DNA of 64,000 nucleotides. Source: a virus. Taxonomy: Duplodnaviria; Caudoviricetes. The translations under genes were made by a program, and so were the position numbers. The number at the start of each line of letters is the position of its first letter. The first letter of the stretch is position 1. The stretch lies in IMG/VR virus record IMGVR_UViG_3300021412_000003, positions 4,929 through 68,928 of that record. One strand, 5' to 3'. Below are positions 28,546 through 50,149 of the stretch, in pieces. The notes beneath the pieces were generated by a model. The model had not been told where the DNA came from, did not search any database, and saw only the letters and a list, made by a program, of their open reading frames with translations.

Positions 28546-28795
28546 AAGATCAAGATCTGCTCGCGCGCAGGGCTGCGTGTTAAAACCTTTCGTATTGCTG
28601 CGCGTTTGCTTTGCGTGCGCGCACTGCTCTCCGCGCTCGTGTGCGCCGGTTCCCCTATACCTTTGCGGGGCGGGTGCAAAGGGCCAAAAACGGCCCCTAC
28701 CTGGTACTTTAGGCAAAATCCGCTGTTGTGGGTAATGTTTTGGGCAGCACCACAACCCAACACCAACCACCCACCACGGCAAGGCAGGCAACCAC

Positions 28796-29116
28796 ATGGC
28801 ACACAACAGCACGGCCCGCCGCAAGGTAGTGGCCACCGCCCGACAAGGCGGTGCGGCCCGCAAGGGCAACCGCTACACCATGGGCACCGGCGTAAGTCAG
28901 GCAACGCAAGCCCTCTGGGCCACGCCTAGCTCCTACGAAACCGTGGGCAACCCGTTTGGCCCGGTGCGGCCCAGTAAGCGCACCATGGACGACTTGGCGA
29001 ACAAGGCCATAGCTGGGCTGGGCTCTGCCCAAACCAAGGGCGCAAAATGGGGGCGGGTCTGTCCCGGCTGCGGCTTGCAGCGTAGCCGCACCAACCTGTG
29101 TGGTTGCAACTCCTAG
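28796..29116 (+). CDS. Basic protein with C-terminal CPGC...CGC zinc motif
   Basis: AAGGCAGG before ATG; terminal Cys motif. Confidence 0.6.
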   Translation: MAHNSTARRKVVATARQGGAARKGNRYTMGTGVSQATQALWATPSSYETVGNPFGPVRPSKRTMDDLANKAIAGLGSAQTKGAKWGRVCPGCGLQRSRTNLCGCNS

Positions 29117-32721: not shown

Positions 32722-32750
32722 TTGTCCGCGATGGGCGGGTATGGTACAGT
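32722..32750 (+). promoter_or_regulatory. SigA-type promoter TTGTCC-17-TACAGT
   Basis: Matches promoter at 29819. Confidence 0.7.
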
Positions 32751-32780
32751 GATCAAGCGGCCCAGGCGAAAGGCGAAATT

Positions 32781-33221
32781 GTGCCCAGTATCACGTGTGG
32801 CAATTGCCGTGGAACCCACTCGTCCGTCGCGGACGTGAGATGGTGCCACAAGAACTGGATTTCTAAGGAAGAGGTCGACAAGGCCGCCACGTTCACGCAG
32901 AAACAGCTTCCGGGAGGACACTACGCTCTCCTCGATGACGAGGGAACGTGGAAGTTCTACCGGGTCTCGTGGGGCAAAGAAGGCGGACGATGGGAAGGCC
33001 GTGCCTTTCTGGAGGTGCAGGCCAGCGACGATCTGCACAAGGTTCGAAACCCCCACACACGCAACTCGATCTTCGCAAGGATCGCCGAAGACCCCAAGGA
33101 GGCGGCACTCCAGTACGGTCATCAGATCGGTCGGTGCTCGGTGTGTAACCGAACGCTGACCAACGAGAATAGCATCGCAGCGGGCATCGGCCCGAAATGC
33201 GCAGGAGACAGAGGATGGTAA
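32781..33221 (+). CDS. DUF6011-like zinc-ribbon protein
   Basis: YGHQIGRCSVCNRTLTNENSIAAGIGPKCA. Confidence 0.75.
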   Translation: MPSITCGNCRGTHSSVADVRWCHKNWISKEEVDKAATFTQKQLPGGHYALLDDEGTWKFYRVSWGKEGGRWEGRAFLEVQASDDLHKVRNPHTRNSIFARIAEDPKEAALQYGHQIGRCSVCNRTLTNENSIAAGIGPKCAGDRGW

Positions 33222-46152: not shown

Positions 46153-46316
46153 CATTCTGGGATGTGGTCTGGCTGACCCTGTTCTACTGGTTTCTTGGGT
46201 CGATGTGGATCGCGATGTACTTCGGGCACAAGATTAAGATGGCTGAGTTCGAGCAGAAGGCCATTGACAAGGAGTACGAGATCGAGAATCTCAAGAGCGA
46301 CTTCAGGAAGTCGTAA
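46143..46316 (+). CDS. Single-TM protein
   Basis: Trp/Phe-rich N-terminal TM. Confidence 0.55.
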   Translation: MPVTFWDVVWLTLFYWFLGSMWIAMYFGHKIKMAEFEQKAIDKEYEIENLKSDFRKS

Positions 46317-46693
46317 TGGCTAGGCCACGAGAAGATATATTTCAAAGGCTGTTCGATCGCTTAGAGACAGACGGTCCACTGCCAGAAATAGATCCTTCTC
46401 TTGGTCCTTGCTGGATGTGGACTGGACCGACAAATGAACATGGATATCCTTTTATCTGGTATAACAAGGAATATCATAAGATTCATCGGTTCATATTTTG
46501 GCTATTGGTAGGAAATCTAATTGAAGGGATGCAAATAGATCATCGTTGCAATGTGAAGCTATGTGCAAATCCAGACCATCTAGAGCAAGTTACCCCAAAA
46601 GTAAATACGAATCGGGCAATTGAAGACGGTTTGCGTAGAGCTGGAAATCCGTATTCAGACTTCAAAATAGTCCCCCGAGAGGAGAGGAGGTGA
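46316..46693 (+). CDS. Free-standing HNH endonuclease
   Basis: CWMWTG...GY...HR...IDHRCNVKLCANPDHLEQVTPKVN; AT-richer than neighbours. Confidence 0.9.
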   Translation: MARPREDIFQRLFDRLETDGPLPEIDPSLGPCWMWTGPTNEHGYPFIWYNKEYHKIHRFIFWLLVGNLIEGMQIDHRCNVKLCANPDHLEQVTPKVNTNRAIEDGLRRAGNPYSDFKIVPREERR

Positions 46694-49600
46694 TGCCAAT
46701 GCGTTATGTAAGTTTGCATACTCATTCTACTTTTAGTTATGGCGATGGATTCGGGCCTGTAAAGGCCCATGTTGCCAGGGTTGCGCAGCTCGGGATGTCC
46801 GCAGTTGCTCTTACAGAACACGGTTGAGAGCAACACCAGTTCTCATGTTCAGCTCGAGAAAGCATGTAAAGAATATGGAGTCAAACCCCTTTTCGGCTGC
46901 GAACTCTATACGGCACCGACTGATTTCGAAGCCGGTGATGATCGCCCAATCAAAACTCGTAAGAAGTTCCATCAAACAGTTATCGCTAGAAACGAAGAAG
47001 GCTATCGCAACCTCAATCGGATGGTCTCCGCCAGTTGGCGAGACCACTTCTTCCAGTGGCCGACAACTACTGCTGGACTTCTCGAGCAGTTCAGTGATGG
47101 CCTCGTGGTACTCAGCGGATGCGCTGACTCACTGCTATCTTGTACCTTACTCGGTGGAAAGGAACTTGGCCCTAAACGATTGGAGTACAGCAGAAAAGAT
47201 TTTGCCCGAGCTCGTGAGGTCGTTGAACGATATCAAGAAATATTTGGGGAATGGTACTTTCTGGAAGTACAACGCTTTCCGGGCTTGGAGCGAACTTGCG
47301 TTCTTAATCCTGCTTTTGCAGAGCTTTCACGAATTACTGGAGCTCGACTCGCCGCAAGTTCTGATGTCCACTACCCATTCCCAAACGACAATGAAATGCA
47401 GCGAGTCCTACACGCCGCCCATCGAGGAGGTACGGTAGAACAGGTAGACGCGAGCTGGGAATACGATATCCTGCTCACCTACCCGACTTCGGACAAGGAA
47501 ATCATCAATGACCTGGTGGGGACGGGGCTCTCTAAGATCGAGGCTAAACGGGCAGTCTTCAATACCGCCCTCATCGCAGATGCCTGCACTGTCGTCCTTC
47601 CTCGAAACGAACCCATCAAGTTCCCTTATCCCGGCTCGGACATGGAAGGAATGGAAAAGACATGGGCCTGGGAACGAGAGCCTGAGGACGAGGACGGATT
47701 CGTTCGGGAATACTCTTCTATTGAGGAATATATCTGGCAGAAGCTTCGGGACGGCTGGCGTTTCCGAGCCGAGAGCAATCCTGAGATGGTCCGCTCTGCC
47801 AAGCGCACGGCAAAGTACGTGGCGCAGCTTCAATACGAGATGGAGCAGGTTTCTGACAAAGGATTCCTGCATTATTTCGCCATGTTGTCAGATGCCGTGT
47901 CCTGGGCTAAGGATCACAAGATCCCTGTGGGACCCGCTCGCGGGTCTGCCGCCGCAAGTCTCGTCTGCTATCTGCTACGGATCACAGAAGTGGATCCAAT
48001 GCAGTTCCCCAACATGCTCTTCGCGAGATTTATTGATCCGAACAGACTGGACCTTCCTGACGTTGACCTCGACTTCGCCGATGATCGTCGAGATGAAGTT
48101 CGAAAATACCTTGTTTCGGTTTACGGGGCCGATCGCGTGGGGAATATTGGAAATTTCACCAGGTATAAAGGCAAGAACTCAATTGACGATATCGCACGAG
48201 TCTACCGGATACCTGGCTACGAGGCTGAAATTATCAAAGGGCTCATCGTTGAGCGCTCCGGAGGTGATGCGCGTCAGTCAGAGTCTCTTGCAGATACGTT
48301 TGCCATGTTCCCTAAAGCCAGGGAAGTTCTGGATCGGCATCCGGAGTTCGCCCTCGCAGAGCGGCTGGAGGGAAATTACCGTGGGCTCGGGGTACATGCC
48401 GCCGGTATTGTGATCTCCAATGCGCCCATCACAGATACCTGCGCGGTGTATACGCGACCGAAGGCGAATTCGGACCAGAACGTAACCGTGGTGGCGTACG
48501 ACAAAAAGGACACTGAGTATCTGGGCATGCTCAAAGCGGACTTCCTGGGACTTTCCACGATGGGCATGATCGGTATCGCTCTGGACATCATCGGAATGGA
48601 TCTAGAGGACCTGTATCGTGTTCCAATCACTGAAGAGCGAACCCTACGTGCATTTAAGGATAACGACCTCACGGGCATATTCCAATTTGAAGGCCGGGCC
48701 ACGGCAATCGTCAACGCTGATGTTGTCCCGGACAATTTCGGCCACCTGGCGGATATCAATGCTCTCTCCCGGCCTGGACCACTCTTCTCTGGAATGACCG
48801 CTGAGTACTGCCATGTCAAGCACGGACGAAAGGAGGCTGAGAAGCTTCATCCCGTCGTTGACCGTTTGACCGGGTGGACGTATGGTCAAATTGTTTATCA
48901 AGAACAGGTTCTCAGCATTGTTAAGGATCTTGCTGGATTCCCAATGGCGCGAGTCGGCGATATCCGTCGTATCATTAGCCAGAAACTCGGCCAGATGGCC
49001 ATGGCTAATGCATACCAGGAATTCGAGGAAGGATGTGCCAAGACCCATGGTATCAAGGCGGACCTAGCCCGTCGGATCTGGAATTTTATCGCTACGAGCT
49101 CTACCTACAGTTTCAACCAGAGTCACTCGGTGAGCTATTCGCTGCTTGCCTTTTGGTGCATGTACCTGAAGTTGTACCATCCGACTGCTTTCTACGCCGC
49201 GCAACTCACAAAGGTAGGAGACGGCAAAGACGATCTCTATGATCGTGGAAAGCTCATGCAAGATGCTATCCGCCACGGCATTACTATCGCACCGCCAGAC
49301 ATCTATCTGTCTGGGCCAAACTGGACGGCCGATACAGACTCCAAGCGAGTTCTCGCTGGGTTCATGCAGGTATCCGGGATTGGTCCGGCGACCACGAAGA
49401 ACATCCTCCAGTGGCGGAAAAAGGAGATAGAATATCGAGAAGGTTTCGTAGAGCAGACGGGAGAGTCTTGGAATCTCAAGTGGGAAGATCTCATTGACGT
49501 TAGAGGCATCGGTCCCAAGACTATCGTTCATGCCATCAACCTCGCAGAGTCTGACGATCCTTTCGGTATTCACGCGGTAGAGCGTAAGATCGGTCCGGTG

Positions 49601-50149
49601 CGCGCGGCCATCCAGAATGGAGAGGATGGAATGGAGATGCTACCGGCTCCAACTCATCGTTCTGATGAGATGCCGCGCGATGGCGTACACAATGTCGTAT
49701 GGTTGGGTGTCGCACGAAGCCTGAACTACAAGGACTACTTGGAGTCTACCCGCACTCGTACCGGCCGAGACTCAGAAGAGATCTTGGCCGACATGAGAGA
49801 CCCGCACTTGCTGAAGTCTTGCGTGGTGCGCGCTTATGACGAAGGCGACGAAGATGTCTACCTGAGATTCAACAGGTGGCAATTCCCGAAGTTCGAGGAG
49901 GCTCTGGAAGGGCTGAATCCCGAAGAGGATTTGGTGCTGGTCCGAGGCATCAAGCGAGAGGACTTCGGTATCTCAATTCATGTGAAAGACATGTGGATTA
50001 TCTCTTCCGATGAAGAAGAGGAGGTTCCAGAAGAGATCGTCGTGGAGCACATTGAAGCGGACATTCAGGAGGAGAAAGAAGATGTCCTAGAAGAGCTGGA
50101 GTCAAGAGTCAGAGATCTAGAGAAAATGGCATATGGCACAGAGTACTGA
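46693..50149 (+). CDS. dnaE: DNA polymerase III alpha (DnaE), interrupted by a 7-nt insert at 46825-46831
   Basis: Frame A 46693-46824 gives SLHTHSTFSYGDG...ALTEHG then TGA; +1 frame from 46832 gives NTSSHV..., with PDVDLDF, GVHAAG, RPGPL, YSFNQSH. Confidence 0.92.

Follow-up and report, generated by a model that had tools for sequence, protein, structure and literature searches.

Stop-containing 4–9-nt inserts in actinophage dnaE genes: candidate bypass elements linked to homing endonucleases

The closest known system to the locus described here is mobA/gene 60 of phage T4, in which a gene for an HNH homing endonuclease lies beside a gap that opens with a stop codon after an invariant Gly at about codon 46; the gap protects its carrier from the phage's own nuclease (Huang 1988 and Bonocora 2011, as cited in PMC5009743; Manning and Atkins, bioRxiv 10.1101/2022.08.31.505936). 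The present locus lies on a 64,000-nucleotide (nt) stretch of viral DNA, hereafter the window, which comprises bases 4929–68928 of the 68.9-kb IMG/VR virus record IMGVR_UViG_3300021412_000003 (rated complete by CheckV). There, the heptamer TGAGAGC interrupts the polymerase gene dnaE within its PHP domain. In the following, we describe the family of inserts to which this heptamer belongs, its linkage to nuclease genes, the mosaic structure of the window, and purifying selection on the segment upstream of the insert. We propose, with a probability of roughly 0.5, that the heptamer may be a homing-endonuclease immunity insert decoded by a short translational bypass, i.e., a miniature of T4 mobA/gene 60.

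Efficient translational bypass is known in very few systems, namely T4 gene 60 and its kin, the byps of yeast mitochondria, and the proposed case of Streptomyces phage Hau3. The Hau3 terminase, which is the closest short case, contains two frame-breaking inserts of 10 nt, each with UUA as its first codon (Smith 2013, as cited; PMC5009743, PMC10732093). Bypass of one of these gaps was demonstrated by mass spectrometry in E. coli with UAA replacing UUA (PMC10732093). An earlier reading of the window, made from the sequence alone (hereafter the sequence-only reading), had mentioned short bypassed inserts in an actinophage terminase, and Hau3 is indeed that case (PMC5009743, PMC10732093). In the mitochondria of Magnusiomyces capitatus, many bypassed inserts of 27–55 nt have been reported (Lang 2014, cited in PMC5009743). 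Synthetic “stop-hops” were also prepared in E. coli, in which matched codons flank a stop codon and nine nucleotides specify one amino acid (Weiss et al. 1987, reviewed in PMC5009743); no natural in-frame stop-hop was known according to a 2016 review (PMC5009743). A gap of this kind in dnaE was not found described in the literature searched.

The PHP domain of actinobacterial DnaE1 is a proofreading exonuclease. In the window, its first segment is encoded by open reading frame 1 (ORF1; Table 1), whose motifs we take to be the metal ligands of this exonuclease. ORF1 is colinear with Taq DnaE (2hpi) from residue 6, and a colinear match to M. tuberculosis DnaE is also obtained. Its final codons, GCT CTT ACA GAA CAC GGT, are followed directly by the stop codon that opens the insert. 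Homology resumes with the Asn codon AAC at 46832 (NTSSHVQLEK...), from which ORF2 shares 91% identity with the DnaE of the relative G001 over residues 1–1060. Deletion of the insert yields TEHG-NTSSH, which matches all intact relatives and is colinear with Taq DnaE. Between the window and the insert-bearing locus L019, ORF1 is under strong purifying selection (proportions of nonsynonymous and synonymous differences, pN 0.055 and pS 0.73); therefore, the N-terminus of DnaE is translated and needed.

With regard to start codons, the sequence-only reading had pointed to a Shine-Dalgarno (SD) sequence but placed the start of dnaE at ATG 46693, only 2 nt from AGGAGG. ATG 46699 is the likelier start, because it lies 8 nt from AGGAGG and homologous ORF1s are 42 amino acids (aa) long (MRYVSL...). 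The claim that ORF2 has no credible start was upheld: between 46806 and 47020, its frame contains no ATG, GTG, or TTG, and the first ATG, at 47021, lies 63 codons past the insert. The nearest upstream start in the ORF2 frame, TTG 46805, would add nine out-of-frame residues, and TTG 46824 belongs to the third frame. From the latter codon, which overlaps the ORF1 stop, a third-frame ORF of 204 aa extends over 46824–47438. G001 (L006:2996-3607) and L012 (623-1186) keep this frame open as well, and the ORF is probably a codon-bias artefact.

Table 1. Features of the dnaE locus in the window, followed by the insert alleles of related loci and phages (a slash marks the point of insertion)
Feature	Window position, or carrier	Strand	Description
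HNH_3 endonuclease gene, free-standing	46316..46693	+	125 aa; Pfam PF13392, E 1.2e-9 (above cutoff); PHROG 826 “HNH endonuclease”, E 1e-25
Imported cassette (approximate limits)	46316..46860	+	HNH gene + ORF1 + insert; L019-like 5' end, G001/L012-like from ~46860
SD sequence AGGAGG for dnaE ORF1	46685..46690	+	read from the sequence
dnaE ORF1	46699..46824	+	42 codons (MRYVSLHTHS...ALTEHG); HxH, D, and TEHG motifs of the PHP domain
RNA hairpin (predicted)	46804..46834	+	10 bp including one G.U pair; 11-nt loop containing the take-off codon; minimum-free-energy fold
Proposed take-off codon GGT (Gly42)	46822..46824	+	from codon usage in insert vs intact alleles
Insert at TEHG/N, window	46825..46831	+	TGAGAGC, 7 nt; in-frame stop TGA 46825-27; last 3 nt, AGC 46829-31, proposed landing triplet
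dnaE ORF2	46832..50149	+	1105 codons + stop (50147-49); +1 frame relative to ORF1
Insert at TEHG/N	L019/L020		TGAAAGGA, 8 nt
Insert at TEHG/N	L047-50		TGAGGT, 6 nt
Insert at TEHG/N	L051, L099, L103		TGAGGC, 6 nt
Insert at TEHG/N	L100		TGAACGGC, 8 nt
Insert at TEHG/N	L101		TGAAGC, 6 nt
Insert at T[ED]HG/N	L070, L102		TAGC, 4 nt
Insert at TEH/G	L104		CAT/TGACAT/GGC, 6 nt
Insert at HHHN/T	L068		AAT/TAGC/ACG, 4 nt
Insert at TFS/Y	Ranch, Patos, Erutan, Xenia2		TCC/TAGGTGGCC/TAC, 9 nt
Insert at LHH/H	L077		CAC/TTATCGC/CAC, 7 nt

The insert is real DNA in an otherwise clean genome. A DNA alignment with four Terapinvirus phages places a 7-nt gap exactly at this point, and the closest relatives, i.e., the viral genome (UViG) G001 (91% aa identity), the metagenome contig L012 (88%), and a contig of run X4, are gapless. 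These relatives read GGG/AAT or GGG/AAC, in accordance with the GGN AAC that the sequence-only reading had predicted for insert-less alleles. Logan contigs built independently from runs X1 and X2 contain the insert with 0 differences and 0 gaps; both runs represent one soil sample, possibly the source, at a word depth of ~5. Together, the relatives and these contigs bear out the earlier claim that an invariant motif has truly been interrupted by these 7 nt. Low depth and a single sample would be the setting for an artefact of assembly or sequencing, yet such an origin is extremely improbable: two independently built contigs share the identical 7 nt, a 7-nt insertion is atypical of Illumina error, and homologous inserts are found in many other assemblies as well as in finished genomes of cultured phages. 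Furthermore, the assembly is not error-ridden, because a tblastn search with all G001 ORFs, used in place of a nucleotide-level whole-genome alignment that was too diverged (~75–80%) for indels, revealed no other true frame break in the whole genome. Elsewhere in the window, copies of the insert motif amount to nothing (3 matches with ≤2 mismatches vs 1.9 expected). A tRNA scan of the window, outside of which lie the first 4.9 kb of the genome, returned zero tRNAs and hence no phage suppressor tRNA there.

The window allele is one of many. From 77 IMG/VR loci, six assembly loci, and GenBank records, 14 distinct DNA alleles were collected, all located within the first 45 codons of phage dnaE homologues and 4, 6, 7, 8, or 9 nt in length (Table 1). 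An in-frame stop codon comes first in 13 of the 14, and UUA comes first in L077. The distance from the N-terminal motif to the Asn is exactly 40 codons in ~60 intact lineages; thus, the N-terminal segment of DnaE never varies in length. The first search, with the 44-aa form of ORF1 as query, found further short ORFs ending at TEHG, and a profile of six short ORFs recovered 32 clusters of short proteins (90% identity). In twenty of these clusters, the proteins are 42–44 aa long and terminate precisely at T[ED]HG, and in two others they terminate at TEH. None has lost the ligand motifs HxH, D, and H, and one cluster is represented on 36 contigs. For the contigs of P0007, P0008, P0025, and P0030, the inserts are known from the end of ORF1 alone. 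On a DnaE tree, the 15 insert-bearing rows are scattered, such that 13 gains or losses are required. The 9-nt allele is carried by five cultured, plaque-forming phages from four US states.

In GenBank, the DnaE coding sequences (CDS) of the cultured Gordonia phages Ranch, Patos, and Erutan are annotated from a GTG after the in-frame TAG and that of Xenia2 from Met33; these records (L105-L107, L021; MN234207, OP172876, OR475273, PP725409) omit the first 13–32 codons, including the HxH motif. Two assembled contigs show additional features. On the P0008 contig (ENA ERZ25039591, 70.7 kb), the dnaE frame changes after VAELG and a 1066-aa ORF runs from Met33, which looks like one extra base before the Met33 ATG and may be an assembly error. 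On the P0030 contig (ENA ERZ28573522), dnaE contains the stop break at TEHG together with a downstream intein (PF14890), i.e., two different selfish elements in one polymerase.

A second common property of the insert lineages is their neighbor. A nuclease-like gene abuts dnaE in 14/14 insert lineages vs 2/~55 intact ones (Fisher p 8e-13). In the window, the TGA stop of the HNH_3 gene overlaps ATG 46693 and sits 6 nt before the likely dnaE start, and the gene is 90% identical to the one at the same position in L019. Its kin are found upstream of dnaE in L047-50, L099, L100, L104, Ranch, and Xenia2 as well. A different family, phrog_4160, which displays a Cys-rich, His-Me-like motif by eye and a weak HNH PHROG match, occupies this position in L051, L070, L068, L101, L102, and L103, and L077 possesses a classical HNH nuclease. 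The two intact exceptions, G001 (L006:2327-2875) and L037 (945-1373), carry an HNH/NUMOD3-type gene in the same slot and no insert in the first 45 codons; the target or immunity mark of that nuclease must lie elsewhere. In tblastn searches of cultured phages, the L047-type HNH gave no match and the phrog_4160-type nuclease 11 weak matches; the window-type HNH_3 family (1277 records) is too widespread to inform.

The distribution of the nuclease and the insert among close relatives further links the two. Among cultured Lambovirus phages, five carry both the HNH gene and the 9-nt insert, and ~28 relatives with 95–96% identity carry neither. Ranch and Xenia2 are the same in sequence from the HNH gene to the insert, and diverged downstream. 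The window itself is a mosaic: ORF1 has 69% nt identity to G001 and L012, vs 85–95% downstream, and 13 of 16 informative sites in 46699–46738 match L019, while sites after 46899 match G001. From the sequence, this mosaic is best read as the footprint of a homing cassette, with a conversion tract ending near the insert. The 14/14 vs 2/~55 association and the T4 precedent suggest that the insert may protect its carrier from cleavage.

The codon before the insert is GGT in 10/10 insert alleles at the TEHG site vs 5/60 intact loci (p 8e-9), and all of these alleles retain an Asn codon (AAC or AAT) as the point of resumption. Moreover, the take-off codon is matched exactly or approximately by the triplet that precedes the resume codon. 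In six alleles, the two are identical or readable by the same tRNA, with flanks reading GGT-TGA-GGT, GGT-TGA-GGC (three), GGT...GGC, and CAT-TGA-CAT.

RNA structure offers a further signal in some of the alleles. The sequence-only reading had placed the insert at the apex of a take-off hairpin with stems AGAAC/GTTCT and GTTG/CAAC, but this structure computes to +3.1 kcal/mol and is displaced by another fold. In the favored hairpin, the 5' arm 46804–46813 (GTTGCTCTTA, codons V-A-L-T) pairs with the 3' arm 46825–46834 (TGAGAGCAAC, insert plus AAC) at −12.6 kcal/mol, with a z-score of the 62-nt fold of only −0.7. Among all TGA-NNNN inserts, TGAGAGC ranks 1/256 for pairing with the upstream 30 nt. 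Similarly, for pairing with the upstream A-L-T codons, the ranks are 1/256 for the window, 1/64 for L051 and L101, 2/64 for L099, and 6/64 for L103, and the stop codon is retained in the stems of these five alleles through G.U pairs. Hairpins similar to that of the window form in four other alleles. TTR serves as the Leu codon in 6/9 insert alleles vs 3/35 intact genes. These ranks, the stop-keeping G.U pairs, and the TTR bias may point to selection on the RNA. In the window, AGC may owe its sequence to pairing with the Ala codon GCU in the hairpin and not to anticodon re-pairing.

These observations can be combined into a scheme of immunity and bypass. The 7 nt would be part of a mobile cassette consisting of the free-standing HNH homing-endonuclease gene and the first ~130 nt of dnaE, and would disrupt the target of the nuclease in the invariant ...ACN GAR CAY GGN AAY... 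stretch, thereby rendering the carrier genome immune to its own enzyme. As the first 40 codons tolerate no length change, the insert would have to be removed during decoding. Here, the ribosome would pause with peptidyl-tRNA-Gly on GGU and the stop codon UGA in the A site, and the tRNA would unpair from GGU. The mRNA would then slip 7 nt forward, with help either from pairing of the insert with the V-A-L-T codons in the hairpin or from re-pairing of the tRNA at AGC, and decoding would restart at AAC to yield full-length DnaE with the native TEHG-NTSSH junction. Lengths of 4, 6, 7, 8, and 9 nt put ORF2 in every frame; thus, no fixed-frame mechanism can be common to the alleles, and readthrough, a +1 shift, a −1 shift, and a fixed stop-start overlap are ruled out in that capacity. 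A variant genetic code was likewise set aside, given that the reading frame changes across the 4-, 7-, and 8-nt inserts.

The dnaE locus has in common with T4 gene 60 an HNH gene directly 5' of the interrupted gene and a gap whose first codon is an in-frame stop, immediately preceded by an invariant Gly (codon 46 in T4 and codon 42 in dnaE). In both, the segment around the gap is strongly conserved, ORF2 need not be in frame with ORF1, and the distribution is sporadic and recent-looking, with co-converted flanks and nuclease families swapped at the same site. The upstream HNH gene, the family of 4–9-nt inserts, and the sister alleles with matched take-off and landing codons greatly strengthen the analogy with gene 60 drawn in the sequence-only reading. 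Unlike the 50-nt gap in the T4 topoisomerase gene, the dnaE gap measures 4–9 nt and lies in the PHP domain. The HNH gene is upstream of the whole of dnaE instead of splitting it, and N- or C-terminal extension (NTE/CTE) tails are absent. In contrast to gene 60, dnaE has no demonstrable nascent-peptide signal or mini-SD, and the landing triplet of the window is unmatched. The dnaE hosts are phages of Actinobacteria, and there is no sequence homology to the T4 cassette.

The comparison with Hau3 is similarly mixed. In both cases, actinophages carry short inserts that open with a slow or stop codon, are flanked by sequences contiguous in relatives, and have been linked to a putative stem-loop, and L077 even opens with UUA as Hau3 does. 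Unlike the dnaE alleles, Hau3 has no reported homing endonuclease and was proposed as a regulatory sensor of the bldA tRNA; it also occurs in very few genomes, whereas the dnaE alleles are many and mostly contain true stops. The layout of the synthetic stop-hops is reproduced exactly in L047-50, L051, L099, L103, and L104. The window allele departs from those artificial, low-efficiency constructs in being out of frame with unmatched flanks. The byps resemble the dnaE inserts in being many and short and in tolerating imperfect take-off and landing matches; unlike the dnaE inserts, they are mitochondrial, have an unassigned codon in the A site, and lack a nuclease partner. Lastly, as in Aeh1 nrdA/MobE and T4 genes 39/60, a free-standing homing-endonuclease gene (HEG) is tied to an interrupted essential replication gene whose parts would remain functional. 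In those systems, however, the HEG lies between the pieces, each of which has its own start and added tails, whereas the dnaE break spans a few nucleotides and often has no start codon. The candidate dnaE elements differ from the known bypass cases in length, host gene, and nuclease families, and in carrying no recognizable gene-60 stimulators.

Among the alternatives, genes in pieces require the most attention. According to this explanation, the 42-aa peptide and a separately translated large subunit, made by termination-reinitiation or from its own start, assemble non-covalently into an active PHP domain, which is compatible with the conservation of ORF1. Homing endonucleases are known to make working split genes, e.g., T4 39/60 and Aeh1 nrdA (bioRxiv 10.1101/2022.08.31.505936). 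Potential ORF2 starts are present in a number of alleles: a TTG overlapping the stop in the 8-nt alleles L019 and L100 (GGTTGA), an in-frame ATG in L070 (cATGGttag), a GTG directly after TAG in Ranch and Xenia2 (the start used by the GenBank DnaE annotation), and a GTG two codons past the stop in L047, L102, and L103. Natural splits of dnaE after the PHP domain also exist. In the Terapinvirus phages (L001-L004) and on the L099, L100, and L104 contigs, the gene is divided near residue 318, where the stop of the first CDS overlaps the start of the second; in Terapin, a small extra ORF lies between the two. Given start codons in seven alleles and these natural splits, a two-piece enzyme is a serious rival, albeit an unlikely one. 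In the window, L051, L101, L099, L104, and L068, no ORF2-frame start lies near the gap, and TTG falls in frame automatically in any 8-nt allele, so that the match may be due to chance. Furthermore, the Asn resume codon and the Gly-like triplet are kept even upstream of the supposed GTG start, the 6-nt in-frame alleles need no stop unless the exact junction matters, and a 13-aa peptide, as in Ranch, is unlikely as a stable subunit.

Alternatively, the phage may harbor a null allele, tolerated or transient, in which full-length DnaE is lost through an insert left as a repair scar or immunity mark. Such a phage would live on the host polymerase, an N-terminally truncated product, or co-infecting helpers, and the cassette would spread despite its cost. 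Every insert lineage has close intact relatives, as expected for young and possibly costly invasions, and the window allele comes from one sample. The insert is also a perfect inverted copy of an upstream heptamer of the L012 type, as snap-back repair would give, and P0008 displays another N-terminal break, a 1-nt shift before Met33. This scenario is nonetheless improbable, as diverged insert lineages retain both ORF1 and ORF2 uninterrupted and show purifying selection on them, and the features are non-random (stop first in 13/14, GGT in 10/10, Asn codon kept); the inserts also persist in five cultured phages from four US states, and one allele occurs on 36 contigs. Still less probable is a simple +1 frameshift at GGU_UGA of the window allele, similar to the “shifty stop” of prfB, which would produce TEHG-ES-NTSSH (TEHGESNTSSHV) with two extra residues. 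With ORF2 in the +1 frame and a stop codon in the A site, this would be the shortest route, and such shifts classically occur when a stop stalls the tRNA in the P site. However, tRNA-Gly re-pairs poorly on GUU, the 3–10 nt upstream (acagaacac) contain no SD stimulator like that of prfB, and two aa would be inserted into a segment of constant length across ~60 lineages. Nor can a +1 shift serve the 6-, 8-, and 9-nt sister alleles.

Several points weigh against an immunity insert decoded by bypass. We infer the bypass from comparative data only, and the window allele is known from a single sample. In the forms GG-TTGA-GG-C and CA-TTGA-CA-T, a 2-nt duplication seems to accompany a 4-nt TTGA insert, and the matched flanks could be partly a by-product of insert origin. 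Likewise, the window insert is an exact inverted copy of the heptamer GCTCTCA in L012, which also fits snap-back repair after cleavage, such that the pattern may partly record origin and not decoding. The take-off codon GGU and the landing triplet AGC match at two of three positions. The hairpin is absent or weak in L019, L100, L047, L070, and L102, and there is therefore no single RNA signal common to all alleles; the gene-60 stimulators (nascent peptide, mini-SD) are, to judge from the sequences, not recognizable in any of them. In addition, an ORF2-frame start codon is found at the gap in 7/14 alleles, and a selfish cassette can spread even when it is harmful to its carrier. The synthetic stop-hops of Weiss (1987) reportedly were inefficient, at ~1%.

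From a broader perspective, we consider the chances about even that actinophage dnaE harbors a natural and diverse family of minimal bypass elements, created and spread by several homing-endonuclease families as self-immunity marks. If so, these elements would include the first natural stop-hops and would provide a short counterpart of T4 gene 60 that is testable in cultured Gordonia phages. The varied gap lengths at one invariant site would constitute a natural mutational series for deriving minimal take-off and landing rules, and the strategy of “homing endonuclease plus bypass” would have evolved more than once. Suitable material includes the GGT-TGA-GGT forms, the cultured phages Ranch, Patos, Erutan, and Xenia2, and insert-less sisters, such as Zany and Sadboi. 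For annotation, the inserts have a practical consequence: GenBank entries drop the first 13–42 codons of such polymerases, and automated gene calling leaves dnaE split or truncated in many metagenomic phages.

Elsewhere in the window, two apparent frame breaks (~32722-32790 and 28600-28800) proved to be conserved non-coding stretches upstream of genes. The first, conserved with G001 over 32722–32780, contains a promoter-like TTGCCC ... TATGGT just upstream of the GTG start at 32781. The second comprises ~140 nt (28620–28760) upstream of the gene at 28796–29116, is also conserved with G001, and could be a structured RNA or a regulatory region. The genome ends (67992–68864 and 10–546) both match one 439-aa gene of G001; since this gene spans both ends, the record represents a complete, circularly permuted genome.

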